DNA of 62,935 nt, filler included, from Folioceros fuciformis (GCA_049999805.1; 12 parts of 12 records of this genome joined end to end with filler, not necessarily neighbours in it), one strand, 5' to 3'; shown: positions 5,541-47,981, counted from the whole stretch's first letter. Notes: generated from the sequence alone by a model not told the origin. Numbers and translations: made by a program.

Positions 5541-7335
5541 GCCCTCGGNNNNNNNNNNNNNNNNNNNNNNNNNNNNNNNNNNNNNNNNNNNNTTAATTAA
5601 TTAANNNNNNNNNNNNNNNNNNNNNNNNNNNNNNNNNNNNNNNNNNNNCCTGCTGTCTGTCTCCTCCGATTCTGCGTCCGCTTCAGCGGCTGCGCCTTTG
5701 CCTTTCCTGCTGCTGTCCTGCGTCCCGCTCATTCATCCAGTTCAGGGCGCAGCGGGCCGGGCGGCCAATGAGGGCGGGATACGATCGGGGGCGTCAGCTG
5801 GCGCGGCAACGCGCGCACACATGGGCTGGAAATGCGAAGCTTACGAAAGTCTGGCGAGGCAGGATAGGATGGACGGTTCACTCGCCTGCGCTGGTGTATG
5901 GGCTCGACGGTTTGCTGCTGGCGGCTCTGCCCGGTCGGGACCATATATCTCACTCCTTCTGGCACCTTGGGGTACGTGGCGCAAAACGCACCCGCGCCAG
6001 CCCTCCCGGCGACGCGTGTCCCAAGCCCTTCCTGCTCACACCCAAATATCAAGCACGGTGCTCCCTCCTCGGGCCCCCTCGGGCCTCACCAAACCCATTA
6101 CGTGGCCGATAGCTCAAGCGCGGGGTTCCACCACCCGCCACCTGCCCCCTCCCTACACGCTGCCCAAATCGAAAAACGCGCTCTTACCGGGATCGGGGCC
6201 CCAGCCCTTCCACACCCGGCCGTGTGATCTCATAGAATCAGGACGCGCGGCTTGCCCGGGTTCGCGGCAAACCAGCACGTGCCTCCGGCTCGGGCACCAG
6301 CTTAGGGGAGAAGGCCTCGAGGCCCCGCGGCCCCGACTCTCGTCTCCCAGAATCAGACTCCCAGCTTCCCAGACAGACACATGGACATGCACTTCCATTT
6401 CCCTTCCACCCCCGTTGCGCGCTGCACACGCAAATGGAACAACGTCCTCCTTTCTTCCCATCTCTTCTGCTGCTGCCAAGCCACACCAAAACGGAGCCTC
6501 AAACTTGGTACGCACACACTCTCACTAACTGGAGGGCAGAAAATTCAATACCCAACTGCAACCATGGTAATACTGCTGATACTGTACAAGTACATCCCAT
6601 CCCATACTGTATGTAGGAAGAAGGCTAGAAACAAACAGACAAGTGTGCGGCAAAGGGGAGAGAGGAGCAGGGAAGCCACCAAGGAGGACCAACTGGGATA
6701 TTTTCCTCTCTCGTCTGGCACCTCTCTTGTCTTTTTACGCTGGCTACAGACTGCACATTCAGTGGAATTCAATGCAAAAGCTTGACTTGACTGCGAATAC
6801 AGCATTGGTTGAATACATGTATGTACACGAGTGTGTACTATACTGGGCCTGCTTGTGTGCAGGAGAAACCCCCTGGATGATGAGCTCCGAGTACGGGTGG
6901 GGCACCGGCAAGGTGACAGGACGACAAGGGAGGGTGTGTCGTTTGCTGGACGGAGCAGCCTCCCCCGACCTCCCTCCTTCCACATTCTCCTCCACTGCTT
7001 TGCTTCCGAGGGCTTTGACCTGTAGCTGCAGGCAGGACAAGGAGGAAGGAGCAAAGGAGGTGGCATTCAATGGAAGTGGTGGCGAGGAACGTGACAGAAG
7101 GCACGCCCAATTCTGGAAATGGGGAGGAAAGGGTACCGGATTGGGGCACCACCCTGCTTCGTGACGGGCTTCCACTCCGACCTGGACAAGCTGCCATTGA
7201 TGACGAGTACCCAAGGCTCCTTAGGAAAATAAATTACTTGATCCGGAGGGCTTCTCGGCTTCCTCCTCTTCGATGCACATGTCTGCCTGGTGCTAACAGA
7301 TCAGGACAACGTGGAGGACGATGTGTAAGGGGAAT

Positions 7336-15645: not shown

Positions 15646-15745
15646 NNNNNNNNNNNNNNNNNNNNNNNNNNNNNNNNNNNNNNNNNNNNTTAATTAATTA
15701 ANNNNNNNNNNNNNNNNNNNNNNNNNNNNNNNNNNNNNNNNNNNN

Positions 15746-19200: not shown

Positions 19201-22200
19201 ACTCCGGGCAACGTTATTACGGTCCGCCTCTTCGGCCCAGGCCCAGGCCCAGGGCAGCGAAGAGTAAGTGGACTCGGTCCTCGGATGCCTATCTCGAGAC
19301 AAGTCGCGGGTAATCAACGTCCAACTTCTGCAGGAGGTTGGGCGTGGCTTTCCAATGGGGGGCCGCCACACCGCGCGCTCCGTGGATTACACCGCTGCCG
19401 CTGCCGCAGCGGCAGCAGCTGCCTTGAGGGGACTGGAATCGGAATATGATATTAGTATAAGGTGTGTACTTGAGAGGGCAGCGGAAAGAGGGAAGGAAGG
19501 CAGGCAGGATCCGGGGTGGCCTATTGAAGCCAAGCCGAGCCGAGCCGAGCCGCGTAGATCGTCATGCAGGCAGGCAGCAGTCTGCAGCTGCAGGCTGCGG
19601 CAGGCTTCTGCCACGGCCGCAGCCGCTGGCACTGCAGCAGCTCGCATTGCCTGTTCGTTCATTCACACACAGCGCAGGCCGCAGGAGGAGCAGCCAGCAG
19701 CCAGCAGCTTCATGTCGTTTTGTAAGAACATCCGAGTCCCTCCAAGGGCAGGGCAGGGCAATGCAATGCAAGGCAAGGCAAGGCAAGACAAGACTATGCA
19801 AGGCAAGGCAAGGCAACATTACGTGCTTGTCACCTGTTGCTGTGCCTCTGGCTGCTGCTCTGCACCCACCCTTGTGGACACTGGTGGGGGCGGGGCGGAG
19901 AGGAGAGGAGAGGAGAGACTGGGACATGGACCGGGACACAGACCCGGACCAGGACCAACCTGGCCCCGGCCGGCCCCACGGATCGGGTGCGGTCAGGCCT
20001 CGAATCCCGCGACGGTTGCATCCGCCATTCATTCGCAAGCCCTAACCCTGTGCCAGAATGTGGTGGAATCATAATGGAGGCATCTGCTTTTCCATGTCCA
20101 AACAAGCCTGGAAAGTTATGTGGCACCGCTTCCAATTTCCCTCTCGCAGCCTCGCTCACCACACTCTCCACCTCTGCACTGCACTGCACTGACTCCCCCT
20201 GCCTGGGCCTGCCTCCACCTGCCTGGGCCTGCCTCTCACTGACTGACTGCGTGGCGAGTCACGACGAGAGGGCCTGCATGCCTCCGCCTCCCCGCGCTCG
20301 TTCTCCCGCTTCAACCTTGCTTCCATCCCTTTTCACTTCCTCCCTTCCTTCCTTCCTTCTTTCCTTCCTTCCTCCCGCTTTTCCTCCCTTCCATAGCACC
20401 ATCATTCCCTAACAAACCCTACTCCTCCTCAATTCTACACACCCTCTGCTGTCGGCGCCACCGACGAAACTCCCTCCACCTGACAACCTACTCTACTCCA
20501 CCTTCGTCGCTGCCGCCACCTCCCTCGTCAACCTCTCCTGCTCCATAAACATCTGTATGCATGCAAGTACTACTACTTTCTCCATCAGGCAAGGCAAAGC
20601 TCCAAGCTCCATGCTCCCCCCGCTTCTCCTCCTCCTCCAAATGTGAATCCGGATGATACCGCTCCGCGACTCGACCTGGTCCACGCACGAACCAAACCAA
20701 CCAACCAACCCCGCCTGCAGCATTCCGTATGTCCCTTGACCACGACGGAACGGAGCCCTAGCCCCAGCTGGCAGCCCCAGCAGCGTCCGTTCCCGCTGTC
20801 GTCTTGCATCACCCCCCCATTTACAGGCGCAGGAGGTTTGCAGACAAGCAAGCTGTCTGTGATTTTCTTGTCTTACACTTCCCACATGATACGATACGCA
20901 GCAAGGGCGGTTCCCTGGGTTCCCAGCGCCAGCCCGCCCGCAACCCGTGACCGTAACTTCACCTCACCATGTCATCAAATCCCCGCTTCGCCGACCCCTC
21001 GCACGTACAACCCAGTACAGTAAGTAACTAGAAGCCACCTCACCTCGTCAACGTTCTGTCATGCTGCCGTCCCGACGGAACGGCAGTGCCGCAGCCACGC
21101 CATGCCCCAATCCGATTCCCAACATCTCTCATACCATTTTTTTATCAAATATTCTCATGCTATAATCGGGCTCGGCGTCACCACCGTCCCGAGCACCCAG
21201 ATTCTTTCTTCCCTCTTTCGCTTATTTCAATTCAGGCGAGTCAAATGGAAGGCTGGCCTATCCTCGCCACGCCACGCCACGCCACGCCACGCCTCACCTC
21301 GCCTCGCCTCGCCTCGCCCAGCGGGCGGGGAACGCCAGATTTCAGCATCCCCTCCTTGTGGCGGCATTTTGTCGCCTTGTCTGCGTCGCTTTAAATTCAA
21401 AATCTGGCGCACACCTTCGCCCGCGCTCACCCCGATGATGCAGCAATCTACGTAACTTTGTGTACATTCTATTCAACAACAAAACAACATGTGCAGCCGG
21501 GATTTGGGCACCTGGATTTGGATTTGTGCACTCCATGCCGTAATCAGCGTCTCTTAAATCTCAACGCAACGGTAGATAATATCCAAATCTCGATGCACGC
21601 ATAGGGCNNNNNNNNNNNNNNNNNNNNNNNNNNNNNNNNNNNNNNNNNNNNTTAATTAATTAANNNNNNNNNNNNNNNNNNNNNNNNNNNNNNNNNNNNN
21701 NNNNNNNAGACTGACAGCCGAGCCGGGTGTAGGAGGAAGGACGGACGGCACAGATGCGGGCGGACGGCAGACAAGGCAGCGGCAAAGGAGACTGCGCGAT
21801 GCAAGGCTAGACAACGCTAGGGCGGAGGACAGCCAACAACAGGTGCAGAAGACACGCCTTCCAGAACCAGATGGGAGGGCGAGGAAGAAGAAACAGGGCA
21901 AGGGCGAGGGAGAAAGCGAGGCAAACCTGGAAAGGGAAGGAAAACTCGAGAAACGCCCAGACACTGCCAGAGTGCCAGAAACGCCACTCCCTTTCCCATT
22001 CTCTCACAATGCTCCATTTTACCCGTCCATAATTCTGTAAAACTGCAAAATGCCACTTGGACAACGTCCTGGCGTTTTTGTACAGTATAGTACATGCTCG
22101 CACTCGCTGCATCTCTGCGGCTTCCAATATTCGCTCAAATTTTCGTCACTCTTGCCTGCATTATTCTTACTTTCGTATTAATTTCGACTAGAGCGATTCC

Positions 22201-22304: not shown

Positions 22305-22466
22305 TAAAACCCTAAACCTATTTTTTAATAAGATATATTAATTATAACAAAGGTAAAAAAATACTAAACAACATACATGGTGTACTATGAACCTACATGG
22401 CTAAACCTAATCCTAATCCTAAGACTTGGCTAACCCTAATCCCTAAACCCTAAACATGGCTAAACC
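22305..22466. repeat. Telomere-like (AAACCCT/TAATCCCT) units immediately 3' of the kinase ORF
   Basis: AAAACCCTAAACCTA near 22307 and TAACCCTAATCCCTAAACCCTAAAC at 22431-22455. Confidence 0.7.
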
Positions 22467-23902
22467 CACATGTCTTCGAAAAAAACGTCTTTCTTAATTC
22501 TACTTGTTGTGTTATTGCGTGGCATCCGATAAATAAATCTATTTAATTGTTCAAGATTGTTGATGGAGAGTTTTTTGTCTCTAATACTTCGATTCAAAAT
22601 CATTCGGGCGACATATTCCACCCATATTGCATTAATATTAGGGTAGCTTTGGTCCCACTTCCCTTGAGCAATTTGGTGCACACGTCTCCAAGTTTGGTCC
22701 AAAAAATAATTTGGTATCCTTTGTTTGGCAAGATTTGTAAATATAACCTCGGAGCCATGTTGCATACGTGATAATCCAAAATCTATAATAGACGCTTTCA
22801 ATCCATGTGTTTTGATTATTTCTCTTTCGTTGTTCGTGATATATAATTCAAGACTTTTGTCGTCTCCTGTATAAGTTATAAGAATGTTTTTGGTATGGAG
22901 ATCTCGATGTTCAAACCCATATGCGTTTTCTGCTACCTGCAAGGCCAAGGTTACTTGTAACAATACACTTTTGACTTCATGCAAGGTATTAAATTTAAGT
23001 TTTGACAAAGAAATCCCGCCATCTTCTTGCGCAATTATCATGAACCTTTGATTAGGTTCATAGACCATAGGAAAGTTGGACTTCTCCATCGCTGCCCATT
23101 CTGACTTGGCATGCATAAAAAGCTCAGAGTTTAGAAACTCTCCTCTCCAAATTTCATTCCATTTGTTACATATAAAGTTGGTGCAGAAAAAAAGAGCATT
23201 CGGATTTCGTAAGGTCGCCAAAGTATTGCCAATCAATAACTCCTTAAAATTATCATCCTTCTCAAGATTATCATCCTTTTTCATAGGTATCACTTTAATT
23301 ATTTGACCATTCACCTTAAAAATTTCTGCATAAAAACCTTCACCAATCTTTGTCACACATGGTCTTATAGAAGAGTCAAAAAAAGATGAATAGTGGTGAT
23401 ATAAGTCGTCATAATATGCTTTTGAAGCACCGTCAAATCCGACACCCTGAGGATTACCGGCCTCCGAATCTTGCAAAGAAGTTCTAACACCAAAGTTCGG
23501 AGGACTACTACAAAGCTGCAAAGAATTTCTAACACCTAAGCTCGGAGGATGGGCGACGTTGAAGCTTGGAGAACCCATGAGATCAAAACCTAGTAAATTA
23601 ATGAGATCAGAACCTAATAAATGAGTGGTGTATGAACTCAGCTCTACCTCCGGCACCAAATTCGGCTTAGTTCTAACACCAAAGTTCGGAGGACTACTAC
23701 AAAGCTGCAAAGAATTTCTAACACCAAAGCTCGGAGGATGGGCGACGTTGAAGCTTGGAGAACTCATGAGATCAAATCCTAGTAAATTAATGAGATCAGA
23801 ACCTAATAAATGAGTGGTGTATGAACTCAGCTCTACCTCTGGCACCAAATTCGGCTCCAGACCTAGAGCATGAGGTCGAAAATTTTGTTCAAAATGAGGC
23901 AT
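22460..23902 (-). CDS. Divergent, intronless haspin-like Ser/Thr kinase
   Basis: KIGEGFYAEIF (Gly loop), IIKVIP (Lys), KELLIG (alphaC Glu), SVLLQVTLALQVAENAYGFEHRDLHTKNILI, ASIIDFGLSR and W..SYPNINAIWVEY. The FEHRDLH context and the C-lobe are haspin-like. First ATG at 23902. Confidence 0.8.
   Translation of the reverse strand: MPHFEQNFRPHALGLEPNLVPEVELSSYTTHLLGSDLINLLGFDLMSSPSFNVAHPPSFGVRNSLQLCSSPPNFGVRTKPNLVPEVELSSYTTHLLGSDLINLLGFDLMGSPSFNVAHPPSLGVRNSLQLCSSPPNFGVRTSLQDSEAGNPQGVGFDGASKAYYDDLYHHYSSFFDSSIRPCVTKIGEGFYAEIFKVNGQIIKVIPMKKDDNLEKDDNFKELLIGNTLATLRNPNALFFCTNFICNKWNEIWRGEFLNSELFMHAKSEWAAMEKSNFPMVYEPNQRFMIIAQEDGGISLSKLKFNTLHEVKSVLLQVTLALQVAENAYGFEHRDLHTKNILITYTGDDKSLELYITNNEREIIKTHGLKASIIDFGLSRMQHGSEVIFTNLAKQRIPNYFLDQTWRRVHQIAQGKWDQSYPNINAIWVEYVARMILNRSIRDKKLSINNLEQLNRFIYRMPRNNTTSRIKKDVFFEDMWV
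23480..23856. repeat. Near-identical 189-bp in-frame tandem duplication (63 aa x2) in the kinase N-terminus
   Basis: GTTCTAACACCAAAG starts at 23481 and 23670. The peptide PNLVPEVELSS...PPNFGVRT is repeated. Confidence 0.95.
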
Positions 23903-24559
23903 TGTAGGATGCTTAGAGCAATGGTACCTTGATTCAACTAAATACACAAGATATAGTTCTAAGATCAATATGCATGATAAATCTTTACGAAAGTTCTTGC
24001 AAGTCGACACTTACAAGAGAAGAGAAAAAATGGTTGAGGTTGTCCATTATGGTAAGAGCTAACCTATTCATAGTGAAATACTTTGTAAACTTTCCAAATA
24101 AAGTTAGGGTTACTTTCATTTTTAGTACAAGTAAACCATATGTTTATGCGTACACCAAGAGGTAAGTTAAGTGCAACTTGCTAAATAATGACATAAAGAC
24201 TATGCATAATGCCAACCTAGTATATTCTTTAATTAGGTCAATATTATTCTAAATCCTAAACTTTTAAATTCAGAGTTAATTCTAACTTGGGTGTAAAATT
24301 GAGATACTTCTTCTTTGAGTCATCTTGTTGCTATTCAAGCATGTGTGCTTAAGAGCATTGTTACACGGTACATAAAATTGGTGGAACGTGTGCAGTATGT
24401 TACCTGTATATTTATTCTCAATACGTTATTATATTTAAAATCCTCAAATGACCATAAAGTATGTAATAAAATACTTAACAATTAATAAATAATAAATGTA
24501 TCACGAAGACATAATACTCAAAACTTAAATCTCAAACCACATCAAGGCATCACAATCAA

Positions 24560-26600
24560 GAGGCCTCGAGCTAAGAATAACCTACCATTCAAGATCCAAG
24601 TTTTCATCATCATGCTCACAACTAGGATCAAGTTTTTCCTTTCCATCCTTGACCTCATGTCCTTCAAGGGCAATCTTCAACAAGGTGTTGTGACGTTGCC
24701 TCCACCTTTTGCTAATAGTTTCACATTTGTTTTTCACCAACTTCTCAGCTTGCTGAGATGTCAGCCTATTCCTTTTCTTTGAGTATATGAGTTCATATGT
24801 GCTCTAGGCCCTTTCACAAGGAGAAGAGCTAGAAGGTTGAGACAAGATGTGGATGGCAAGCCTTTGGAGTTGAGGTGTTGATTCCCCATAGTTCTCCCAC
24901 CATAGGGTAGGGTTCATAGACTCTGTTGCCCTATCATATTGCATCTGGCTTGATCCAAATAATCCGCTTTGGGTTATGTACAAGACAAGTTGTTCACGGA
25001 TGACCTATTGTGCGCTAGATCCTGCACCCATGATTGCATCCAAGTATGTATGTAGACTTGACATGATTGTTGCGTTTGTTTTTTTTGTCATCCCCTCCAT
25101 ACTTTGGATCTAAGATTGATAAAGTTGTTCCCACTTCCTATCAATGATTGCCAAAATCTCACTTGTCTTCTCATGCCCCACAACATGCCCCACAACTTGA
25201 GACAAGTCAAACACCTCTTTATGTGCTGCCACCATAGTTGGATAGATTTGCCCCATAACATGATGTGCCCCATCAACATGCCTCAATAACTGTACAAAGG
25301 CTGTAGTGATGGAAAGGACAGCCCTTATTCCTACCCACATACTATCACCATGACGTCCATTTTCACTTGACCTTTAAGCTCTTGAGCTAGAAGGCCTCTA
25401 GGCTTCCCAAGACTTGCTCACCATGGTTTCCTGGAGACTATTCTTCACTTGAACAAAAAACGCTGCAAGTGTATATGATGGATAGCAAATCTACTAGCTA
25501 CAGGCCTCAACAATCTACAATTGAGTGTGTCCAAAACATAGCCAAGGATGTATGATGGGGTGGTGATGAACTGAACCACTTATTGAGCTCGCTGAATGAT
25601 GGGTTGAACCACTTATTGAGCTCGCTGAATGATGGGTTGTATCCAATTGATGCTACTCATTGCTTCCAGGAGTAAGTCGAGGATGTGAGCTGAGTAAGGT
25701 GTGCAAACAATGCCAGGATATTGTGCTTCAATCATCTGTCTAGCAATGCCAGGATATTGTGCTTCAATCATCTGTCTAGCAATGCTAGGATATTGTGCTT
25801 CAATCATCTGTCTAGCACATTTACAATTTTCCAGCAAGTCTGTAACCACTTGAACCACATTCTTACAGCCTACCCCATCAATTGCTTGTTGAAATAGGTT
25901 TGCAAGGTACAAAGCCATTTTCTCACGCCCTGGTGTGTCTTCCACCTCTAAGAAATACATTCCCTTGCCGCAAAGCCACTAACACATTTACCAATAGACA
26001 GTTTTGTTTATTACTCCAACCATCACTCAAGATTGAGCAACCAAATGTCCAAGAGGCTTTGACGTTTTCCAACTTCTCTTTGACTGTGGCCTTTTCCTCG
26101 TTCAGTAGAGTAGCTCACAAAGCGTTGAAGTTTGGGGGCTTATATGAGTTACCTATGTTGGCGATTGCACTGACCATGGCAATGAAGAAGGGAGATCGAG
26201 CAAGGTTGAATGATAACCCGTGTGCATAGAAGCATCTCGCCACAGCTGCATGTACTAGTTTTCTTCGTGGTAGCTCCCATGCCTTCTCCACTGTGGTTTG
26301 CTGAAAACTCGAGCTGCCAAATTGATGTGTTGATGCAACGCATGAAGATATCACCTTCGTCTTTGCTCCATTCAAAAGCTTTTCTTTTACTACACTTGGC
26401 ATTGTGGAGCATGCTCCCACTCCACCTCCTACACTTGTATGGTGACATCTAGCCCTTGTGCTTGTTGCTTGGAAAGACTGAGCACAAAATTTGCATGTGA
26501 CCTTCTTCACTCCAAATGTGCGACCTTCCAAGATCTTGGAAATGCTCCTACACATCTTGAGACGGTAATCGACTCATGGTCCCTAGACAATAAGAAGGTT
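24560..26600 (-). pseudogene. Degenerate hAT-family transposase (BED-like finger, DUF659, hATC dimerisation domain)
   Basis: Fragments VTCKFCAQSF...RARCH, RCFYAHGLSFNLARSPFF...YKPPNFNAL, IDGVGCKNVVQVVTD...AHILDLLLE, and WWENYGESTPQLQRLAIHILSQPSSSSPCER...KKRNRL. Stops, frameshifts and short internal tandem duplications are present (36 bp x3 near 25705-25815; 33 bp x2 near 25572-25637). Confidence 0.88.
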
Positions 26601-27947
26601 CAGAGCATTGCAAGAGGGAGGTGGCCAAAGAAGTTGGTATGCGAACAAGGATGTACATGTAAAAGTAAATAACATTGGTACATATTTTGCACGTATAAAT
26701 ATAAATGTATTCATTTAAAATACAAAATCTAGGTAATTGTGCTTACTAGTCCTCTTCATGGTTTGTCTCGTCCCCATTGTTACTTCCTTCTTCTTCTTCT
26801 TCTTGAGTCTGCTCTCTTGCATGTGATGATGTCCTTGTTGTCACCTTGGTACAAACAAGTGAGCTCTTCCATGCAATCCATCAAGAAGACTTTGCTTCAT
26901 ACCTACATGAGGAAAACAATGCACTTGTACTCCTAGCCAATATTCTGCACTTGGATCTCCCAAAGTATGAAACCAAATTTCAAGTAGCTTTTGCTTGCAA
27001 AGATGTTGCAAAAGAGTACAACATTTTCTTCTTAGTTCCTAATGGTCTCAAAGATGTTGGAAAGAATCACTTTTTAAGTAGTATTTGTTTGGACATTAGG
27101 AGATGCTCATCAAGGTCCTCCTCGGGGAGAGTTACATACAAGCTCTAAGAGAATGGGATAGTCCACATGGCTTCCATCTCCGGAGCCATTTTATGGTCTC
27201 ACAAGTCAATGCAAGTAGAACTAGGAATAAATGTCGGCAAAGTTTGCTACAAGATTGGAACACTAATTTTATCCATCCAAGGCCTCTTGAGTGCAAGGGG
27301 TGCGTATTGGAATCCACAAGGGTTACAAGGAATGTTATTTTAATAGGTGTTCGTGACGTAGAAAACTCTTAACCTTCTTGTCTTAGGATGTGAGGTATGC
27401 CTGTGGCGGTCTCTATACCCTGCAGGGTAGTGTGACCGCCCATGTCTCTTTGCTGGCTTTCTCGATGCTTGAAACATGATCCAGATTTGATTGTTATTTA
27501 TCTATTCTGTACCAAGTAGAGGTATTTCTTTTAAAGGTCTTGTGACTCATGGACATGGAGGAGGCACGTGCATGGATCTCAGCTGGCCAATGCACTTGTA
27601 GAATCCGCACAGTTTTCGAATACAGCGCGCTGAGCTGAAACGATCCAGGCTGCTGCTGCGGTCTTGGATTGTGGCTTACTAGCCTCTTCGGATGTATCGC
27701 GGGGTGGAAAACCAAGATTCTGTGAATACGGTTGGAGCGCTCGGTTGTGGAGGTGGATGATTTTTTGTGATCGATGGATCAGGCTCCAGAGCCGCGGCTT
27801 TGTCATCTGAAAGCTCTCAGATGACAAAAAAACGTACAAGCTGCTATCGAGGGATGGCAATCGGCGAAGGATACCAAGAACAAAATTAGGTCAAGGGCGT
27901 GCGGTTTGCACTCTGGAAGAAGCAGACTGCATTTACGTTAGACGGGC

Positions 27948-29114
27948 ATGAGTTCCAGTGGAGCCAGTCCAGAGAAGCTTCAGGAGTACAGGGTAGTGGT
28001 CCCCTGTCTGCCTCTCTACGATTCCCCGCTCTGCACCCGCCTGGGAACACAAGCATGGGAAGGCCGTCACCTGGCTGTTGTGACGAACTCCTCTGGTGAC
28101 ACCCGCACTAGCCGCTCGGTTGAGCTGCCGCATCTGTCCAGGTCACAAGCCCTAACCCCAGGCCCCTCTTGAATTACGTCTCGGTCGTATTGACTTGGCC
28201 ACGGCATCTAAAGCCTGTCACGGAGAATGAGAATGAAGTGTGTGCTACTTTCAGGTCCCCGATCGAGGTGATTCTTTGTGAAGACGGTTACCAGTGTTGG
28301 TTGGCCCCGGAGGACCTGGATGCCATCGTTCCAGTCCCTCACCACCTGCATTACCGGGCACAATTGCTTCCAGAGAAGGAAGTGAGGTTGAGGACCGCCC
28401 TTGTCATAGACTTCGTCATGGTGGCGGATAAAACTGAAAACAGCTATCTCTGGGGAGGGACTTGCGGACCTAACTATGACTGCAGTGGATTAGGTGATTT
28501 TTGGATGAGCCTTCTCTGCACGCTGCTTCCATCGGATTTCAGTCTTGCTGATGATATGGGTCTAGTCGTGTGCACTTGGCAGTTCGAAGAGCGTTTGAAG
28601 CCGCTGGGATTTGGGTGCCGAGGGATGCTTACCAGCAGGTGATGGTTTGGATTACGGGGCTGCTTGCATCCTGGACTTCCCTCTGCCCCCGCCCTGAAAT
28701 GAGTTTCTTGCTCTTGTTCAGGAGGGTTTTGCGCAACGGGTGCCGAACAGCGACGTGCACACTGGCGATCTAGTATTGCTGCTACTTTCTTCGCACCTTC
28801 AGTAACGAGGACTGGACATTATTATTATTCGCTGAACCTAGAGTATGGTGCAGGTCTTCTTCGGTAGTAGCAAAGCAACTCACGTCGGTATCATTTTGGA
28901 TGACGCGCTGCCTGAGGCCCAGAAGAATAACTCCGCGTTATACGGCCCCGAACGTCTGCCTCCTGTAAGGTTCTTACACAGCTCTGGCAAGGAATATGGG
29001 CATGGAAGGATCGAGGTGGATAATCTGGGCCTGCCACGGGGTCCTGTCGCCATGTATTACTGTTCCCTGTACAGGGGAGCTGGAAGGGTGTTGCAAGTCT
29101 TCTCCCTTCAGTAG
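27948..29114 (+). CDS. Cyanobacterial-type SH3b + NlpC/P60 peptidoglycan peptidase, 266 aa. Exons 27948-28141, 28255-28493, 28583-28638, 28722-28772, 28854-29114
   Basis: Four phase-compatible GT-AG introns (113, 89, 83, 81 bp). Spliced protein: LPLYDSPLCTRLGTQAWEGRHL...EVILCEDGYQCWL...YLWGGTCGPNYDCSGLVRRAFEAAGIWVPRDAYQQEGF...GDLVFFGSSKATHVGI...FLHSSGKEYG. Confidence 0.9.
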
Positions 29115-29564
29115 GACTCGTGCACAAGTGAATCCTTAGAGCCTATCACGAAGAAATCTATACCACAACAGCCACATTACCCAAACGAGCTAACGAGTTA
29201 CTCCTTCACACGTCAGCCAAACTGCCATTGACGAACATCTCAATGAGGCAACTGCCTGACGATAGTCAGAAGAAACCGACAACTTCGGACAAAACGTCAG
29301 GACTCATATTTCCCTGCTTCGTCTAACAGAGCTTGGCAACCGCCTGTACAGGTAACAAAACATTGTGGGAACATCTGAAACAAATGTAGGCGACCGCTAC
29401 CTAAGCTTGGCATGCTGCTCTCATAATTCCGTGAGTGCAAGTTGCCTGCACTTTTCCACTCCCAAGGAAGTGGACCCACCGTTTCCGTGGGATTCCCTGG
29501 AACAGCCCGCCTGATAGGCCGTCCACCTCATGACCCCCCCCTGTCATCTGAGAAAAAATTTGAC

Positions 29565-30812
29565 TCAGATTTTCCTCCTCTTCAAAATCATTAGCTTGTC
29601 ATCGACGCTCCCTGGATTTATCTGCAACAAACATAGCATCAGTCAGTGTAGGTTGCTGTGGGAAGTCGACGGCTCCAGTGCAGGCACGATAACGCAAACC
29701 ACGTTGGCAATGGTCATCCCGGCAGCGCTAATTAAATAACCGAAAGCAGCAACCTTCAAGTACCTTGTCTTCTGCAACTAGTAGAATCTGTCTGACTTCA
29801 TCGTCTTCTGTGAGGTCGGCTGGGGTCTGCAGAGGAAACGACTCATGTAAGTTAGCGCTACGGCTCTCGTGAAGTCCACTGTACAAATGGCACGTCGATC
29901 GAGACTGTGCCCGGAAACAAAGGTGCAACCTGATAGGAGTTATTCTTCAAATTCGGCAAAGCTCCGTGATTTAACAATTGGCGCACGACATCCGCATGGT
30001 CACCCCGTGCGGCATGATGCAGGGGCTGCATGCACACCCACAAAATGTTTTATGTGCAATTGCACAGAAGAACCTGCGTCAAAGAAGATAAGGGACATGC
30101 TCCAAGGTCCGTTGCACAAACCGTGTCGCCGTCTGTATCGGTGGCTTGCAAAACCCGTTTGAGCTCCTCCTGGCTCTTCGTAGCTCTCAACAACATCTGA
30201 ACAATTCCATCGAACCCTGCACTCCCCAAAGCACCCGCCCTGATCACAAAGCCGGAATTCATACAGCCCACAGACCTTCGATCCGATACTTAACCAGCGT
30301 GAACAAGGACAACTCACCCCCAGCAGCGGCATCATGCAAAGGCAGAGCCCCATCCTCATCCCTAACGTCCACGCTTGCTCCAGCTGCTAAAAGAAGCTGC
30401 AGGTCACCAGTCATTCTAGCCTGACCACCTTCCCCGCCCAGCTCCAAACTTAAACCATTTCAATACCTGTGCACAAGGCATATGGCCGTAGAGACATGCG
30501 AGATGCAGTGCTGTATCACGGTCCTCGCCATACGAATCAACGGCTACTGTCAATCTTCCTGCAGACAGAACCAAATTCTGCCTTCAACACACAGAACGGA
30601 CCGGAACGCCATCAGATCGAACAATCGGTGCAGAACTCAAGACCCCAACCTAACGCCCGGGACAAGCTCTCCGTGTTGCCAGCCTCAGCAGCAGAGAGAA
30701 CAGCTTGCAGGTCCTCAGGAACCTCCACGGCATCATCTCCAAAATTCCCAGTCCATTCATCATTTTCCCCGTTCTCCCTCCCACCTACGCCAGAAGGCTG
30801 TGGAACAGCCAT
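29565..30812 (-). CDS. Small multi-exon ankyrin-repeat protein
   Basis: Exons encode SAAEAGNTESL, DTALHLACLYGHMPCAQ, LLLAAGASVDVRDEDGALPLHDAAAGG, PLHHAARGDHADVVRQLL and TPADLT. Inferred last exon is 29621-29565. Confidence 0.85.
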
Positions 30813-32071
<1,259 letters not shown>

Positions 32072-32686: not shown

Positions 32687-35370
32687 ATGCTGGACCAGAA
32701 ATCGCTCACAGCAGTAGGGGATTGGAAATGGGGATCGTATCACAGTGTACAAGGTAGCAGTTGCTGGCCAGTCCAGGCCGGAGACGAGAGCGATGCCGCC
32801 ACTGCGGGTCGTGAAGCTGTACGAAATTGCGCCAAGTTCCCCGATGTCCAGGATGCCAGCGCCTTCATCTGCTATCTTCTCATCCACAATGAAGATGTTC
32901 TAGAATTCACGCCGCCCACTCCGGGGGAGCGGCAGATGGAGTGGCTGGCCCTGCTTCTCCAAGAGGGTCCCTCGTGCTGAAGTACTTCGGTGTGCAGAGA
33001 GGAGTGTGAGATCGAAATCCACAAACGCCTTCATCTTTGCTTCCCGATTCCGGAATTACGCAGGTGAGATGCTGGTGTTGGTCCTGATGGGTGTCTGGAT
33101 GCCCCGAGGAGAGGGTGCAGGGAGAGACTTGGAAGGAGAGTCTGGACAGTCAAACGATCTCTCGGTTCCGGTTCCTCTCAGAAGCAGAAGTTAGATTGAT
33201 ACACTGATTGTGTCAATTCAGCAGCGCTGAGCAGACAACGTCTGGTCGCAGCTTGGCCATGAGACTATTGTCCTTCAAAGTTCCATGAAGTTGTCCCCGG
33301 ATCCCACGATTGATTGTCCAAGTTACAACTCCCTGGAGCACTGTACACCGAGGTACTTAATGCTCAAGCCCGTGCTGCGAATTGAAATGGATGAAAGCTT
33401 GTCAGTTTTTGCTGATGCTTGTCCTCTTGGGCAGTCGGAGGTCCAGGAAGGCGAGGCTGTCTCAGCAGCTGTCTGAAGAGAGCGTCCCCAGCAAGATCAT
33501 GATAAAAGTTGCCAGGGACGTGTTTCTGGAACCCACTGCCTGTACCTAGGATGGGCAAGCTGCTTAGCAGAGTGAGGACTACTGCTTGAAAGAATTCTCT
33601 TAATAGAACCTGGAGAATCCTGTCCTCCCGTCATTCCTATGCAGTCCTGCAGGAGAACCTTGATACCAGGCCCGATGTGAGGGACACATGGAAGGTGGTA
33701 TAATGGATGTGGAAACTCCTTTCATACAGAAAAGACTTCGTGAAATGGTGAGAGAACGTCTGAAGTCCTACTTCAAATGCAAAGTCCCACTTCCAGGCAG
33801 CTATATTCTGAAGGGATGCCCAGATCCCACGGCTCTGCTTGAGCGAGACCAAGTGGCAATTGTGCTGTGAGTCCTCAACTACTCTCTTGTGGTTCCTGTT
33901 AATTGCACTCAGCTTAGAGCATGCTGACGCGGCTTCTGCAGAGCGAACCCAGATGTTGTGAAGGGTGATAGTCTACAGGTACCCAGGCATTCATGAGGGG
34001 AATCCTCATTTCTTTCAAGCTGTGTATCCTGAAGGCTTGCTGAGCATATATTATCGGAAACGGTCGGTATGGGATTTTCTTCTCAACCAAGGGCCCACGC
34101 TCTGTTGTAGATGAAATGGCAGGAGGTGATACGGACGCGGACGACTTCCTCCTCATTCAAAATCCAGAGTTGAGGAAGCGAGTGAGGCATTCAGATTCAG
34201 TCTTTGTAGAAAGCGCAGGCCCTTGGCCTTGCGTTTCAACTTATTCGGTGTGTCGCAAATTGTGGATTCAGTTTTTGGCTAGCTATCCCTGGTTGGCTCC
34301 AATTATCACTTCTTCAGATGGTAACGAGAAACCGAAGCTGGCTCCTGATAATCCTGAGGTGGCTGAACTTCAGCATTTCGAAATAGCTTTGAAAGCCGTC
34401 TTCAGTCCCGGACCGAAATAGGTGCTCAATGCACTTCTTCTGTTCAGCACCGCTTCCGATGCCTGACGAGTGACGTTGCCCTCCGTTGCACTCTTTGTAT
34501 GGCATCCAAGAAGTGGCTTTCTACCCAAGATACAAGCATAGAGAACCTTATCTCTGGAAGTGATTGTGAAGAACATGACCAACACATCCGACATCAACTA
34601 GAAGAAAAGTGTTTAACGCTTGCCGGGCTAAGCTACAAAGCTGTTGACGCACACAAGCGAGGATTAAACGTGTGCGAGATACTCTGTTGTATGCTACTTC
34701 CTACTTTTGCGAGTGGCCTGTTCCCTTTTCATTTCATTGCACAAGGGCTTCGGAAAGTTGCAGGTCTTCCATTCAGTGGAGCCGTTCCTGAAGTGGACAA
34801 CACGTTTCACTACCTCTTCATGCCGCGGTTGTTTTGAAGTGGGACAAACTGCATCCAGCTTGTGGAGTACTCTTAGAAGGCATCGGCATCTGTTATTTTT
34901 AACAAAACAGCATTAAGCATTGAGGAAAACGTAGCAAAATTTGAAGAGCGCTACACATTTCACAGAAACGTGAGTACGCGAGTTTTGAGTTGCAAATTGT
35001 CCACAGACCAGATCAGAAGTCCGGCCTCACATCTGTTGCAGGAATTGTATGGGAGCGCCCATCATGGAGAAGGAACGAAGAACGCTGAGCTCATTGTGCG
35101 GGAAGCAGTAGCTGTGTGTCTCGTGGTGCTTCAGCGGGAAGACAAAAAAGAGGGGGAAAGGGAGAAGGCCCGCGGGGCAACGTCGTGAAGAAAGCTGAGG
35201 TTTGCTTGGCGTGTAGCGGTTGATGCTCTCACGTCCATTGAAGCAGGGGAAGATGCGAACGACTTCGTTGGAACGTACGGAATCACAAACCTGAAGACCG
35301 AGAAGCACATGGACAAGGAGGGGAGAGGGCAATTGCTCCAATGTAAAAGACACTATGAAACGCTTTTGAG
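32687..35370 (+). pseudogene. RDR-gamma (RDR3/4/5-like) RNA-dependent RNA polymerase, disrupted and N-terminally incomplete
   Basis: Segments ETPFIQKRL...KVPLPGSYILKGCPDPTALLERDQVAIVL, VIVYRYPGIHEG, GIFFSTKGPRSVVDEMAGGDTDADDF, YKAVDAHKRG and FAWRVAVDAL. In-frame TGA near 33959 and at 35186, plus a frameshift near 34045. Confidence 0.75.
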
Positions 35371-35566: not shown

Positions 35567-36879
35567 CTAGTTCCCGGGCACGAACTTGGTAGCATAGGCC
35601 CAGGCATTGTTGTTGGCGGGGTCGGCAAGGTGGTCGAGGAGGTTCTCAATGGGGCCTTTGCCAGTCACAATGGCCTGAACGAAGAATCCCAAGGCAGAGA
35701 ACTGCGCCAGCCTGCCGTTCTTGATCTCCTTCACCTTGAGATCGGCAAAGACATCGGGGTCGTCGGCCAGGCCCAGAGGATCGAATGCACCACCGGGGTA
35801 CAGAGGGTCTGTCACCTCGCCCAAGGGACCACCTGCAATGCGGTAACCCTCCACAGCGCCGATGAGGATCACCTGGGCAGCCAACACCGCCAGAATACTC
35901 TGTGCGTGAATCAGAGACGGGTTGCCCAGGTAGTTGAGCCCCTCGTCGGAAAAGATGACAGCGCCTGCCTTGAACCACACTGGCTCCTGGATTGGCACCC
36001 CGTTGAGAGCCAAAATCTCAGGGGTCACGATTCCCAGGGTTCCCAAGAGGGCCCAGCGGGAGTGGATCACCTCCAGCTCCCTGTTCCGGGCGAAGGTCTC
36101 GGGGTCGGCCGACAGACCAGCCGTGTCCCAGCCGTAGTCGCCAGGGAACTCGCCCTTCAGGTAGCTTGGGGGTTCGCCGGAGAACGGGCCTAGGTACTTG
36201 GGCCTGTCTGGGCCGTACCTGCGCAGCACAATCCGTGCTTCTTTCTTAGATCACGCTGAATGACGCCAATCACCTAAGAACAAACATAGGCTCGACGCTC
36301 CCGAAAAAACTTCTGTATTGAGTTCCAGGTGGGAGGGAAGACAAATGCACTGCATTGAGGAGAAATCTTAGAGTTCTTGTCTGGGATAGAGTCTGATGGA
36401 GACGAAGAGAGCAGAGGCCATTGCAGAGAGCTTGCAGGAACAAGTTAGTTCCGAAATCAAGATTCGTGCGTCCAATAATGGACATAACTCGACACTTGTG
36501 TCCACACAACTTCAATGCAAGGTTCCCGGTGGAGGGACGAAATGCAGTATCTTGAGAAGTAAAGCAATCCGAATATAATGCATACACAGACAAATTCTAT
36601 GCAGCGTGCGCACATCCGGGCACAAGCCAATCAGGACAAACAAGGCAATGAAACAGAGAATCCTTAGCAAGGACGCGAACAAGAAATTCGATAGAACGAC
36701 CGTGAGCAAAGTAGAGAATCATTGCGCGGAGTCTAGGATGTCTTAGGATGAATGAATAGGGTAACTTCCCTGCAGTGCAATGCACAATTGAGCAAACAGA
36801 GGAGCAAGAAAGCAGGGCTACCAGATACTGTCAGGCTTGGTGCTGGCTGTCTTCCTCATGGTGATCCTCGACTCCACGG
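35567..36879 (-). CDS. Lhcb: Major LHCII chlorophyll a/b-binding protein (Lhcb1/2/LhcbM-like); transit peptide cut by the gap. Exons >36879-36822 and 36218-35567
   Basis: [28 protein letters not shown]...ELEVIHSRW...[11 protein letters not shown]...FVPGN; 603-bp GT-AG intron inside the Trp codon. Confidence 0.96.
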
Positions 36880-36979
36880 NNNNNNNNNNNNNNNNNNNNN
36901 NNNNNNNNNNNNNNNNNNNNNNNTTAATTAATTAANNNNNNNNNNNNNNNNNNNNNNNNNNNNNNNNNNNNNNNNNNNN

Positions 36980-39535: not shown

Positions 39536-42500
39536 NNNNNNNNNNNNNNNNNNNNNNNNNNNNNNNNNNNNNNNNNNNNTTAATTAATTAANNNNNNNNN
39601 NNNNNNNNNNNNNNNNNNNNNNNNNNNNNNNNNNNAGACATTCCCTTCTGGGGGTGGGGGATGAATGAGACATTCCCTTCTGGGGGTGAAGAGATTGCTT
39701 GGAATTGGACTCGGATAGTTATCGGAGTTTGATTCACCGGATTGAACTTGGCGACCGTATTTTTTATTCTTAGTCGCAGAGGCTTGGCCTCTGCAATTTG
39801 GACAATCTGTTGACGTGTCAAATAGCAGTGGAGAGGGTCGTGTGCGAGGCTATTGTGAAAATTCTTGTCCTACACTTTTCTGTCACCGTGCAAGAAACAA
39901 AGATTTTGAGCTCGGATCACCTTCCATATAGTATTATACGCACCGAAAAGTGTTCTTGTTCCCACTCCTGGTCCAATCATCTCTGCGAAGTCCTGGTTGT
40001 TTGTGCTCTGTCCCAGGAACAGACGGCAGCGTTTGCCAATGTGTGCCATTATGCCGTAGTCTACCCATCCCCATGTGCTGTTTCCTACAGCACGTTGAAC
40101 AAGTGGCAACCTCATGTATCCGACCTATTGCCATGTGCCAGGTCCTTCCCGTTGATGAGAAAGAGTCAAGGGCTACAACTGTGATGGCTGGTGTAACGTG
40201 CGTGCGCAGCGAGAAAGATAGTTAGCACATTTCAGAGTAGTGCGATCACTTCTGACAGTTTGTATGTAATTGCCAGCACCGAACAGCTCAGCTGAGTGCG
40301 GTTGAGGGCGGGCCCACGGGCATGTTCTTCTTCTTTGCGCAAGGTGTCTTGCTCTTGCACAGAGTGTTGTCAAGCATCGGCGGCGGGCAACGTCACGGGC
40401 TGCGTTCCACTGGCATACTGGCTCCCCGTCTGCCACGCGAATGCACGAATACGCATACGAAGGAGCATTATTCCGCGTCGGCAGTACCTCTTGGGAACAG
40501 CCATTTTCCTAAGCGAAGGGAGGGCATGTGTTTTTTTCGCGGAAATTGAGCCGTTCCCGATTCTTGCAATTAGACACAGCCCAGAGTGTGGAGACATGTC
40601 AGGGCCAAGCCAAGGCCAGGCATCGTGGTGATGTGGTTATGCTATCCACGTCTGTTCCGCGCACCCTCCCTCCAGTCCCTGGTGGCAAGCGGAGTAAATC
40701 GCCCTTTCGCATCAATATGCCTGGATGGGCCATGAGCGGGATCTCCTTCGCTGGATCTTGGAATTTTTCGGCGTCTGATTTGGAAGCAGAAAGTTGGTGC
40801 ATTTAGCGGCTCAAGATCAATCACGGCCGTATGCCCAGTTCCAAAGGTGAGCAAAGCAATTTCACAGTCCTGTGCATGGGGTTGTCCCGTGTTAGGGATG
40901 GGGTGTAGCGTTCATCACGAGGGTTCACTGATGCATGCATGTTGTTTTTCTGTGTGATTACAGTACACCTGATAAATTTGACGTACGTCAGCTCCTGCCG
41001 GGAAGTGACTCGCTCGGCACGACATTGAAGAGGACAGGGAGGGGGAAGGACAGGTAGGCGGAATTCTGGGCTGAGCAGCACGCAAATTTGGAGGCCTATG
41101 GTCTAATCCAGGGCTGGATTCGAGTGACGGGGTCTTTCTCTCTGTGTGGAACAGGGGTTATTGAGCTGTCTCTCTTACCGTCTTGTAGATGGAAGAACCT
41201 AACAGCAGCCAAGGACACAGTGTCACGTCGAAATTTTTGACGAAGATGAGGACAGGAGGCATAGGTGAGTTCTCACTCCTTGACTGTTTTGTCTTCGTTT
41301 GCAGAATAGGGCAAAAAGCCAATTCCTTGCTGTGGAAGCTGATTATTCAGATGGTTGTGGCCGTCTTTGGCCGATAGTTGTGCCTGCAAATGTTGGAGGT
41401 TGCTATTCAGGTTTCAAGACTGTTGCTATGTAACTTTAATATAAACTTACCAAGTGCAAGGTGGACTTATGGGTCACCGAGGTGATACGTCATCGTCATC
41501 CTTTTGCTTTGTTCAGAGGCAGTGCCAGTTAATGGAACCAAGTTCTCATGGTGTGGGCTTCGGAACTCTCACCATTTCCGTGTGCTGTAGTGGGTTTTGG
41601 ACGAATCCATGACGGTGGAAGCACTGAGGATGAGGAACCATTTCTGAATGCATATGACGAACCCCTTCCTTGTTGCGGGTGTGGGATTGGCTGGTGTTCG
41701 TAAGTTTTTCGTCCACCCACCCACTCAGTTCCCTCGCGTCATTTTCTGTTAGGCGGAGACCTTGTCCAGTGACTTGCTGAGAGTGACGTTGTAGGTTTCT
41801 TGTGGGATTCGTTGTTCCATTGCTGTGGTTCTATGGCACTTACGTGTTCTTCAAGACTCCACGACAATATGACCCACGAGACAGACCTGGACTGGCTGCA
41901 TGTGCTATTGCCGTGAGTTCGCTACCTTGAACCTCTGTGTTACGGGTGGCAAGCTCCGGTATTTTTCTTCTTGGCTCAACTTCGGGCCGAATTTTCATCA
42001 TCGAAGGAAGTAACTTCCGGGTCTGCAGGCTCTGGCGTGCACAGTTGGAGCTTTAATTGCTGGCATCGTCCTTCTGTTGCAACTTGTAGTTTCCCACTGA
42101 AGAGGTGAAGAAAGAGTGCGGCATTTTTCTGACTCATCATAGGTACGCCTGATCTACTGTCATCTGTTTCAGAGAGACGTCGTGACCGTCCCGCAGCTGC
42201 GCTGTGAGTGATGGCAAAGATGTAGTTGAGTGGAAGGGCAGGGCTTCGGTGCGTTTAGGTTGAATAAAGTAGGGCTAGTGCAGGTTTTTCCGTGTCTTAG
42301 CTCAGGTTTAAGCAGAGAAAAAACGCCAAACCTGTAGTACATTGACTGTCATAGAAGTTGCCATGGTCAGATCTGCTTTTGTCCTAGACTGCTGTTGACA
42401 AAAGGTGTCAGCACACAGGTTGCGATACGCTCATCACATATGTGATTTCTGTTGTCCCGGATATACACTAGGACAGGTCTGCATTCCTCCCGGATATACA

Positions 42501-45191: not shown

Positions 45192-47981
45192 TACGGTGCA
45201 GCAGGAGGAGACAGTGCCGAGCGAGCTTTCCACACGACAGAAGTTGTTGGATTTCAGAAGAGGCTGAGACAAGCCAAGGCATGAATCCATATCAAGCTGC
45301 AGGAGCATCATGTTGAAGAGTGGAAGCACTCCGCAAACAGCCATCCCCACCGCAATAGCGCATTGCCCACCCGCTTCACCCTGTGCGTACAACGTAATCA
45401 AGTTGTGAGGTGCAGGTCCGGCTCCGGCTCCGGCTCCGGCTTGGGCTCGGGCTCCAGCTGGTCCTCAAAGACGCCCCGCGGAAACCAACATGTCCAGCTT
45501 GAAAGAGGTTGCAAGGGACGATGGATAGATGGGTGGGACGCAGCAGATCCGCAGCAGGCCAAGGCCAAGGCAAAGGAAAGGCTGCAGGTGCAGCTCAAGT
45601 TGCATAGCCGCATCGCCAGCTGTGAATTGCGAAGTACAAACAGACGTAGCGAGGCGAGAAGCGTGTCCGGAACCTTGTGGCCCTGCTGTCCTTGTCCTGT
45701 CTCCCTGCTGTGCGTCCCCTGTCCCCCTGTCCCCTGTTCCCTGCTCCGGATCGGAAGAAAAGGTGGAGTCCACGCCGCTTGTGTGCCCGAGGAAGCAAAG
45801 GGAGAGCCGTCGTGAATTCCCTTTCCTCCTACTTCTGGTCCAGGACCTCCTCCTACTGGAACTGTGCTGTGCTACTGTTAGAGCTACTGTAACAGCTACA
45901 GCTGCGGCTACAGCTACACTGACGCTGAGCCCGTCAAGGTGTCATCCGGAGGCCGGCAGACAATCCGGCGTGGCAGGAAGCAGGGCGGAAACGGAAAGAA
46001 AATAAGTGAGTGCGGTGGTGAGAAAAAGGCGAGGAAGATGAAGACCAACAGCATGGGAGTGCAGCCGGTCCGATAGCGACGCCGGCTCCCGAAGCCCGGG
46101 AGGGAAGCGCTACATTAGAGCCCGGTCAGTCGCACTCGCACTCACTGAGCGTTTGGTGGAAGCATTGGAATTGGCAGACGGCACAGGGGAGCAGAGCAGG
46201 GTGCAGCACAAGACAGTCCTCCCGCTGGGAAGACAGGCAGAATTGATGAGACAGGCAGCAGGCCCATTCGCAAAGAGGCCTAGGCCGCCGGGACTGAGGC
46301 GGGGAGGCAAGGGAGCAAATTCGGAATCCGGGGGCTGGGCTGAGCAATAAAAAAGCGGGCGCAGATCTGAAAGAGAGAGGCGCGGCGCGGGCCGGCGCGG
46401 GGAGGAAGGTGCGAGGTAGAGGCGGGAAGGCGGGTGGCGCCGCACTGGGCAGCAGCTGGTCCCGAGGTTGGAAGAAATTGATGTGCCAGCCGGGTGGCGG
46501 TGGCGGAGCCGCGGCTGGAGGTGGAGCTGGCGCTGCTGGTGTGGAGAGCAGGGCAGGGCAGAGCAGAGCAGAGCGGAGCGGAGCGGCGTGACGAGGGCAG
46601 CAGCGCGGTCGGCAGAGCGAGAGGGAAAGAGGAGCGGCGGCAAGCAGCTGGAGTCCAGCTGCAGGCTACAGCCAGCAGCAGGCTTGAGGGCAGCGCAGGT
46701 GTAGCGGCAGGCAGGCAGCAGCGAGGTGGATGCAAGCAAGGAAGGCGGGCAACGCTGGCGCTAGCGCGAGCGCAAGCGCAAGCCGCAGCCGCAGCCGCAG
46801 CCCCAGTCCGAGCCCGAGCCCAAGCCCGAGAGGAAGGTAAGGAGGGAGGAGAGGAAGGAAGGAAGCAAGCAAGAAAGGAAAGCGAGAAAAAGGAAGGAAA
46901 GAGGGAGGAAAGCAGAGTAAAAGGAAAGCGGGGTGGAGCGGACCGGGCCGGACCGGGCCGGGCCTGGCCCTGGGCCGGGGGCGGGGCCTGGGCCAAGGGC
47001 AGCGTGGTGGGCAGCGCGCCGGGCCCGAGTACTTTGGGCTTGGCTGGCCCCTGGAGTCCCGGACCCAGACCAAGGCCCCTGCAAGGGGGGGNNNNNNNNN
47101 NNNNNNNNNNNNNNNNNNNNNNNNNNNNNNNNNNNTTAATTAATTAANNNNNNNNNNNNNNNNNNNNNNNNNNNNNNNNNNNNNNNNNNNNGCTATTGGT
47201 AGTCATTAAGCTTCAAGGTTAGCTCATCATGTTTTCTCAATTACATAAATCAATTGTGTAAATGATGTTTTAGGTGCTATTGGTAGTCATTAGGCTTCAA
47301 GGTTAAGCCTTAAGTGGTTCTATCATAGTTTATCTCTCAATTCTTAAACCTAAGTACCAAAGCCATTGCTACTTCTTCCAACATCATGAAACATCGCGCC
47401 CGTCTTACCCTAGTCCCCAAAAGAGAGAAATATAAGATATGTAGAGAGATATAATAAGAAAAAAAAAGAATTCCGGGCTCGTAGTATATGTCCCCAGTCC
47501 AACAACGACCTGAAGGCAAAGCACAGGCAGCAGGCAGCCATCCATTCAACAAAGGCCAGGCCCGAAAACAGGTTGGGGAGATGTACGGACTAACGATAAC
47601 GATATATTTTTGTATAGAATACCTGAAGATACGAAGGAAAGAGCGAGTATTTTGACTGGAATGGAGCCAACGTAAAGTAACTGCGGCTGAACGGCGTAGG
47701 TTAGACACACAAGGTGTAGTACGTAGAACGAATCTCGGGGACGGAACTTGTGTCGAGGGGCTTCCGAAGAAGGGGGTTTGCATGTGCCTACACACCTACT
47801 TATACCTGTTTCGGCAACCTTAGTTCCGACACTGCACATTGCTTGGGTTATGAGCCTCGGGCTCAGCCATCGCATTGGTTTGTCCTGTTTTCAGCCTCCG
47901 GCTGTGCGCTTCCGGTGGCCTCCGCTCCGCTGCCGCCGCCTCCTCCTTCCTCTTCCTCCTCCTCCTCCTGTGAGCGGAGCC

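Follow-up and report, generated by a model that had tools for sequence, protein, structure and literature searches.

The window analysed here, a 62.9-kb stretch of Folioceros fuciformis DNA, contains on its plus strand (27948-29114) a five-exon nuclear gene whose 266-residue product is an SH3b plus NlpC/P60 protein of the YkfC/AvPCP type, in which the SH3b domain packs onto the papain-like domain. It probably descends from a cyanobacterial gene and has long been part of the green lineage, encoding a peptidase of murein stem peptides that is likely to act in the cytosol. The kind of enzyme is known; its host, a land plant with counterparts in green algae, is what makes it unusual.

Gene Structure and Transcript Evidence

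A search for pairs of donor and acceptor sites that keep the frame open gave five exons joined at GT..AG sites, which reproduces the 266-residue model of the original prediction. Exons 1, 2, 3, and 5 are matched colinearly by four full-length homologues in a tblastn comparison with the window, in which exon 4, with its 17 residues, lies below the reportable length. No comparable peptidase-like match to these four homologues was found elsewhere in the 62.9 kb. Contigs covering the gene were found in two of the four runs searched (X1 to X4), X1 being from the same organism and X2 from a relative about 92% identical. They are treated as transcript contigs because of their exact GT..AG joints, the source runs not being on record as RNA. 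In X1, a single contig of 2393 nt (depth 39) follows the window with no mismatch and exactly skips introns 1, 2, and 3. Introns 1, 3, and 4 are missing from the X2 contigs, in which intron 2 is not spanned. Between them, the contigs thus confirm all four introns, intron 4 through the X2 relative only. The 81 nt skipped there in X2 are drawn one base leftward, a shift that may reflect a synonymous A>G difference at 28772.

The 5′ untranslated region occupies at least 27600-27947 on the plus strand, an extent to be taken as a minimum since the true transcript start is not readable from contigs and the X1 contig continues about 23 nt past 27600. Both contigs are colinear with the genome in this region (27600-28138 for X1, 27830-28138 for X2). 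An in-frame TAG, read directly in the sequence, lies upstream of the ATG at 27939-27941. It had been suggested that a targeting peptide might be hidden there if this TAG were a splice acceptor; because the contigs run colinearly across it, it does not serve as an acceptor in X1 or X2. As judged from the ATG, the TAG, and the colinear transcripts rather than from a targeting predictor, the gene leaves no space for a transit peptide or an N-terminal extension.

Exon 1 (27948-28141, plus strand, as are all parts of the gene) encodes the start codon, 12 residues, and the first half of the SH3b (SH3_16) domain; its donor is confirmed by X1 and X2. Intron 1 (28142-28254, 113 nt, GT..AG) interrupts the SH3b domain and is skipped in contigs of both runs. 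Exon 2 (28255-28493) provides the second SH3b half, with the EDGY motif (Tyr77), a linker helix, and the start of the NlpC/P60 domain; it carries YLWGG (Tyr129 and Trp131) and YDCSG, the codon of the catalytic Cys141 being 28481-28483. Intron 2 (28494-28582, 89 nt, GT..AG, phase 1) comes right after DCSGL. Exon 3 (28583-28638, VRRAFEAAGIWVPRDAYQQ), supported by tblastn, holds Asp159 of the S2 site and Ala160, and is followed by intron 3 (28639-28721, 83 nt, GT..AG), skipped in X1 and X2. Exon 4 (28722-28772, EGFAQRVPNSDVHTGDL) derives from the model and has its joints on both sides in an X2 contig. After intron 4 (28773-28853, 81 nt, GT..AG), exon 5 (28854-29114) extends from the GDL/VFFG joint through THVG, an insert of 20 residues, LHSSG, and a C-terminal strand to the TAG stop codon. 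Both catalytic histidines are encoded in this last exon, His190 at 28881-28883 (THVG) and His222 at 28977-28979 (LHSSG).

The insert (28911-28970) is defined relative to the cyanobacterial proteins and lies between the two catalytic histidines. It is coding, since the contigs of both runs carry it in full, with no gap. A hidden extra intron at this place was considered and rejected, there being no frame-keeping GT..AG pair and both contigs containing the insert. From the alignment, it would lie at the tip of a hairpin.

The X1 contig retains intron 4, its piece 28719-29400 being continuous, and read-through reaches a TAA at 28803-28805, ahead of both catalytic histidines. Retention would truncate the protein, with the loss of both residues. 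The gene could then be decaying or regulated off, with intron 4 mostly retained and a main product reduced to an inactive protein made of the SH3b domain and half of the next one. The one X1 contig, with its depth of 39 and its stop at 28803, speaks for this explanation, which nevertheless looks quite improbable: intron 4 has GT..AG ends, its removal restores a perfect alignment across GDL/VFFG, the X2 relative splices it, and every catalytic and binding residue downstream is intact. Contigs also drop minor forms, and the share of fully spliced transcript in Folioceros is not readable from them. The silent and replacement differences argue in the same direction. The list of coding differences between the window and the X2 transcript, itself incomplete, has 30 entries distributed over 26 codons; in 12 of these codons the residue stays the same and in 14 it is replaced. 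None of the entries lies in a catalytic or binding motif, and two are inside the 20-residue insert. Set against 190.7 silent and 607.3 replacement sites, they give a pN/pS of roughly 0.37 between the window and the X2 relative, which suggests that the peptidase gene is under constraint.

At its other end, the X1 contig extends 854 nt past 29400, toward a convergent ankyrin-repeat gene (29861-30583, minus strand). The transcripts of the two genes may overlap, or they may have been merged in an unstranded assembly.

Genomic Surroundings

The flanks of the gene are land-plant nuclear DNA. At the window start enters a PLS-type PPR gene (3-2048, plus strand), whose P-L-S triplets form a tandem array of 306-bp (102-residue) repeats at 1-1410, with 4.6 copies and 88% matches; E-type motifs follow, then a masked stretch. 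Genes of this class are characteristic of land plants that edit their organelle RNA. Closer to the peptidase gene, on the minus strand, are found a single-exon Haspin-kinase ORF of 516 residues (22463-24010) and, about 1.8 kb upstream, the remains of a hAT transposon (24807-26114) with a hAT dimerisation domain and two DUF659 pieces. Beyond the ankyrin-repeat gene come RPL10 (30965-31495), a short RNA-dependent RNA polymerase fragment (34044-34418, plus strand), and Lhcb (35570-36250, minus strand). The window also includes copia pieces with gag and integrase-related domains (52076-54537, minus strand), a MULE transposase fragment (3811-4131, plus strand), a GT61 gene, a fatty-acid desaturase of plant type, and an ARF-like ORF of 783 residues with PB1/AUX_IAA at its end.

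The GC3 of the peptidase gene (0.61) falls inside the range of its neighbours (0.35-0.82). The lower end of this range is set by the Haspin-kinase ORF (0.35, as against 0.52-0.82 in the other measured genes), the composition of which is locally odd. Bacterial contamination had been thought unlikely from the presence of RPL10 and Lhcb; it is excluded by the four introns and the eukaryotic flanks, and the spliced transcripts agree with this.

Runs of 44 N are distributed through the window in 11 pairs, with 12 bases within each pair and an irregular spacing of about 3-15 kb (1997-2096, 5549-5648, 10783-10882, 15646-15745, 21608-21707, 36880-36979, 39536-39635, 47092-47191, 51967-52066, 56917-57016, and 61200-61299). 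They look like masked or withheld stretches more than assembly gaps.

Protein Family and Active Site

The Pfam SH3_16 model (“bacterial dipeptidyl-peptidase SH3 domain”) is split by intron 1, its positions 1-27 being matched by exon 1 (21.8 bits, E = 1.6e-4) and positions 32-49 by exon 2 (21.5 bits). Each half stays below the cut-off of 25.8 bits, and jointly they cover the model. Positions 3-19 of the NLPC_P60 profile are recognised on exon 2 with 13.9 bits for a cut-off of 23, a weak match on this exon alone because the domain is spread over four exons. A search of NCBIfam gave a sub-threshold RipC match alone. When exons 1, 2, and 5 were compared with PDB sequences by phmmer, the best matches were always 2EVR/2FG0 and 2HBW, the gamma-D-Glu-diamino-acid endopeptidases of Nostoc punctiforme and Anabaena variabilis. 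The corresponding E values are 1.7e-5 and 2.9e-6 for exon 1, 4.9e-17 and 1e-14 for exon 2, and 1.9e-5 and 3.6e-4 for exon 5. Exon 1 aligns with the SH3b domain of 2HBW (residues 11-53) and of 2EVR. Together with the two Pfam domains, these matches bear out the Nostoc/Anabaena endopeptidase type first proposed from motifs.

The predicted Cys-His-His triad is indeed intact. Cys141 (YDCSG), His190 (THVG), and His222 (LHSSG), the last providing a histidine as third polar residue, form the signature of the NlpC/P60 family (PF00877; MEROPS C40), and the three motifs align with their equivalents in 2EVR and 2HBW. This catalytic domain is preceded by a fused SH3b domain of the SH3_16 type, as in YkfC and AvPCP. 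According to the available text of the BcYkfC study, the YkfC subfamily is defined by the catalytic triad, by Tyr226, Trp228, Asp237, and Ser239 binding gamma-D-Glu (BcYkfC numbering), and by the residues that hold the free L-Ala amine; AvPCP carries a Ser257Ala change, and the cyanobacterial YkfC homologues lack signal peptides (PMC2954226). All these positions have a counterpart here. The gamma-D-Glu pocket is represented by Tyr129, Trp131, Asp140, and Ser142, and the L-Ala amine site by Asp159 (PRDAY) and the SH3b residue Tyr77 (EDGY), with Ala160 at the S257 position. Asp159 sits 18 residues past Cys141, as in BcYkfC, and Tyr77 is invariant in the family alignment (A1). The correspondence uses a constant offset of 97 for the set from Tyr129 to Ala160 and is deduced from spacing and motifs, not from a structure. 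By this mapping, the triad and every YkfC-type specificity residue are kept. The single SH3b domain, the 12 residues that precede it, again as predicted, and the upstream in-frame TAG place the protein with the cyanobacterial branch of these enzymes.

Measured with one and the same regular expression, the loop between the two catalytic histidines is 12-49 residues long in the four named full-length eukaryote homologues and reaches 27 in the window protein, against 7 for 146 of the 156 family members that the expression matched. Loop length was rejected as a marker that cleanly sets eukaryotes apart, since three rows grouping with cyanobacteria in the trees have 11-13 residues. One might imagine that the fold was kept while the enzyme turned to another substrate, such as some other gamma-glutamyl compound, with the enlarged loop of the eukaryote proteins as the mark of this shift. 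The S1 and S2 residues are unchanged, however, and the intermediate loops of the three cyanobacteria-grouping rows weaken the association, which leaves such a change of substrate with hardly any credit.

Relatives and Evolutionary Origin

With exon 2 as query, an exhaustive HMMER search matched 55 proteins among the cluster representatives, none of them above 50% identity. Names were obtained for 30 of the 55, in addition to the listed matches of a profile search. The named relatives are mostly cyanobacteria, with eukaryote-like marine sequences among the rest. Homologues from the green lineage belong to the prasinophyte Pyramimonas obovata, whose protein bears the automatic database label “NlpC/P60 domain-containing protein,” and to the streptophyte algae Chlorokybus, Mesotaenium, Spirogloea, and Closterium. 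No named land-plant homologue was seen among the cluster representatives or among the best 120 of 1578 matches of the profile search made with the eukaryote alignment (A2), which is not exhaustive for land plants, as it is limited to these best 120, in which even two rows of the query alignment are lacking. A word-index protein search returned 41 candidates with exon 2, none significant, and four matches with a 172-residue read-through ORF.

A lead for the gene in hornworts comes from Anthoceros angustus, on the basis of annotation and gene order rather than sequence comparison. In the supplementary table available for this genome, the gene AANG002872 has PF00877:NLPC_P60 as its sole annotation, with transcript support, and is placed after a DnaJ gene and before the ankyrin gene AANG002873 (PMC7027989). 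The order peptidase then ankyrin is common to this table and the window; the upstream genes differ (hAT and Haspin in the window, DnaJ in A. angustus). In three fragments among the relatives (P0012, P0018, and P0041), similarity is lost right after DCSGL, and the next residue is either Gly or Ser. A phase-1 intron lying where intron 2 does would be expected to yield this pattern on read-through (xGT), a point that is suggestive only.

The original prediction had considered a gene acquired from cyanobacteria. Cyanobacterial ancestry holds. A scan of prokaryote genomes gave at least 600 matches, and 78 of the best 80 are titled cyanobacterial. A recent gift from a Nostoc-type symbiont is another matter. 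Such a horizontal transfer, from a Nostocales cyanobiont to the Folioceros lineage, would fit the origin of the solved relatives, from Nostoc and Anabaena, and the fact that Nostoc shows the highest full-length similarity, with 49.6% over aligned columns and, by BLAST, 189 bits at about 43% identity (171 bits and 43.6% for Chlorokybus). Yet the exon-2 identity to cyanobacteria is just 43-53% and flat across orders, without preference for Nostocales, among the best 80 of these at least 600 matches. The four spliceosomal introns, the host-like GC3, and the homologues in algae are also difficult to reconcile with it.

The trees add to this. Two quick trees, one with 50 rows and one with 52, place the window protein in a clade with algal rows (SH-aLRT 86 and 89). 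In the careful tree, also of 52 rows, the grouping window + (Chlorokybus, (Closterium, (Spirogloea, P0055))) has 87/89 support, and Pyramimonas lies outside this algal clade. Nesting within Nostocales, proposed beforehand as the phylogenetic mark of horizontal transfer, is not what this tree shows, a Nostocales clade at 91/96 leaving the window protein outside. The eukaryote rows are long branches, and the meeting of long branches calls for caution about the algal clade. After nine long rows had been dropped against long-branch attraction (P0055, Pyramimonas, Closterium, Spirogloea, P0033, P0031, P0036, P0017, and P0047), the window protein grouped with Chlorokybus at 100/93. Forcing it into Nostocales costs 27.8 lnL units, a borderline result in the AU test (p = 0.0495), and a single clade of the six eukaryote rows is not rejected (p = 0.18). 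On balance, these comparisons make a recent symbiont-to-host transfer unlikely, and we would give it very little weight.

The best reading of the alignments and trees is that of an old green-lineage gene of cyanobacterial descent, apparently shared with one prasinophyte and several streptophyte algae. Broad presence in streptophytes had been put forward as the sign of an endosymbiotic origin, and by that standard the distribution across streptophytes points to an ancient origin of the endosymbiotic type; endosymbiotic transfer and very early transfer are not separable from these data. This corrects the tempting view that, when a plant may be symbiotic, any wall enzyme resembling those of cyanobacteria has to be derived from its symbiont.

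Proposed Function

Since all YkfC-type residues could be mapped, the expected chemistry is the cleavage of free stem peptides and not lysis. The enzyme would act on L-Ala-gamma-D-Glu-mDAP, whether or not it carries D-Ala, by cutting between gamma-D-Glu and meso-diaminopimelate. Intact sacculi would not be its substrate, and it would work downstream of an amidase. Its most likely location is the host cytosol, given the 12 residues before the SH3b domain, as in the signal-less cyanobacterial relatives. There it could ensure the disposal or salvage of stem peptides leaking from the plastid peptidoglycan layer, and possibly also of those coming from bacteria. A cytosolic action assumes that stem peptides reach this compartment.

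Within this overall reading, turnover of plastid peptidoglycan is the most likely source of substrate, with a confidence somewhat short of even. The named algae that carry the gene come from lineages in which the plastid peptidoglycan layer is reported to persist, according to a review and to an antibiotic study of Closterium. The same enzyme could alternatively degrade, in the cytosol, muropeptides of symbionts, epiphytes, or pathogens, with a role in immune modulation or symbiont control. The lack of a transit peptide is compatible with such a role, as are, in the texts available, the link made for Chlamydia YkfC with limiting the release of immunogenic fragments and the acquired NlpC/P60 genes aimed at bacteria in Trichomonas and mites. 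This alternative appears rather unlikely, in that the named homologues are from free-living algae of lineages reported to have plastid peptidoglycan. A YkfC-type enzyme moreover requires a free N-terminal L-Ala, according to the text available, and so works after an amidase without lysing bacteria (PMC2954226).

Returning to the plastid source, a broader proposal can be made tentatively: plants that keep plastid peptidoglycan may also keep a cyanobacterial cytoplasmic stem-peptide peptidase, now cytosolic, which would close a salvage loop across compartments. Stem peptides freed in the envelope would exit the plastid and be cut in the cytosol to L-Ala-D-Glu and meso-diaminopimelate. If true, this loop would perhaps keep fragments of the organelle or the cyanobiont from peptidoglycan sensors.

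Work on plastid peptidoglycan has centred on ten synthesis proteins and DipM, and the fate of the peptide stems is not addressed in the literature searched, as far as its accessible text goes. This conserved, apparently constrained gene of the YkfC type offers a handle on this question: its product lends itself to a defined assay in vitro, the gene itself is small and single and could be knocked out in a transformable bryophyte or alga, and its occurrence can be set against the patchy distribution of Mur genes.

Comparison with Known Systems

The plastid-peptidoglycan toolkit, in the accessible part of the review that lists it, consists of the ten synthesis proteins, with no peptidase named; MurA-G, MraY, DDL, and PBP belong to it. 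No NlpC/P60 or YkfC-type enzyme described in plants or green algae was found in the available texts on plastid peptidoglycan, moss MurE, Picea, and hornwort genomes. A study of moss peptidoglycan hydrolases (Utsunomiya et al., 2021) reportedly covers MurJ, a lytic transglycosylase, and DipM. DipM, of the LytM/M23 type, is the characterised plastid peptidoglycan hydrolase of a moss and of glaucophytes (PMC4015805). It has in common with the present gene its cyanobacterial descent, its nuclear coding, and a hydrolase function in plants with plastid peptidoglycan, whereas its fold is unrelated and it acts on envelope sacculi. In its accessible text, the same paper names NlpC/P60 for bacterial LytE-type enzymes only.

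The closest known enzymes are the Nostoc/Anabaena endopeptidases (2EVR/2FG0/2HBW), which also have one SH3_16 domain followed by NlpC/P60, a similar length, the same kind of motifs, no signal peptide, and Ala at the S257 position. The Folioceros gene differs from them in being nuclear and interrupted by four introns, and its product by an identity of about 43-50%, the 20-residue insert between the histidines, and about 10 extra residues in an SH3b loop at intron 1. YkfC of Bacillus cereus and B. subtilis and the dipeptidyl-peptidase VI of B. sphaericus share the residues for gamma-D-Glu and for the L-Ala amine; unlike the window protein, these Bacillus enzymes have two SH3b domains, and BcYkfC has a signal peptide.

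Two further systems offer more distant parallels, here again within the limits of the texts available. The NlpC/P60 genes of Trichomonas and of the house dust mite are likewise bacterial genes in eukaryote genomes, but with other domain builds and other donors, and they are aimed at outside bacteria, with no link to an organelle. YkfC of Chlamydia trachomatis operates in an intracellular bacterium with a transient peptidoglycan ring at division, and is proposed to recycle peptides and thereby lessen their release (PMC9928106). This parallel is functional only, a thin, division-linked wall being comparable to that of the plastid. The Chlamydia enzyme is encoded by the bacterium and active inside it, in contrast to the nuclear gene described here.
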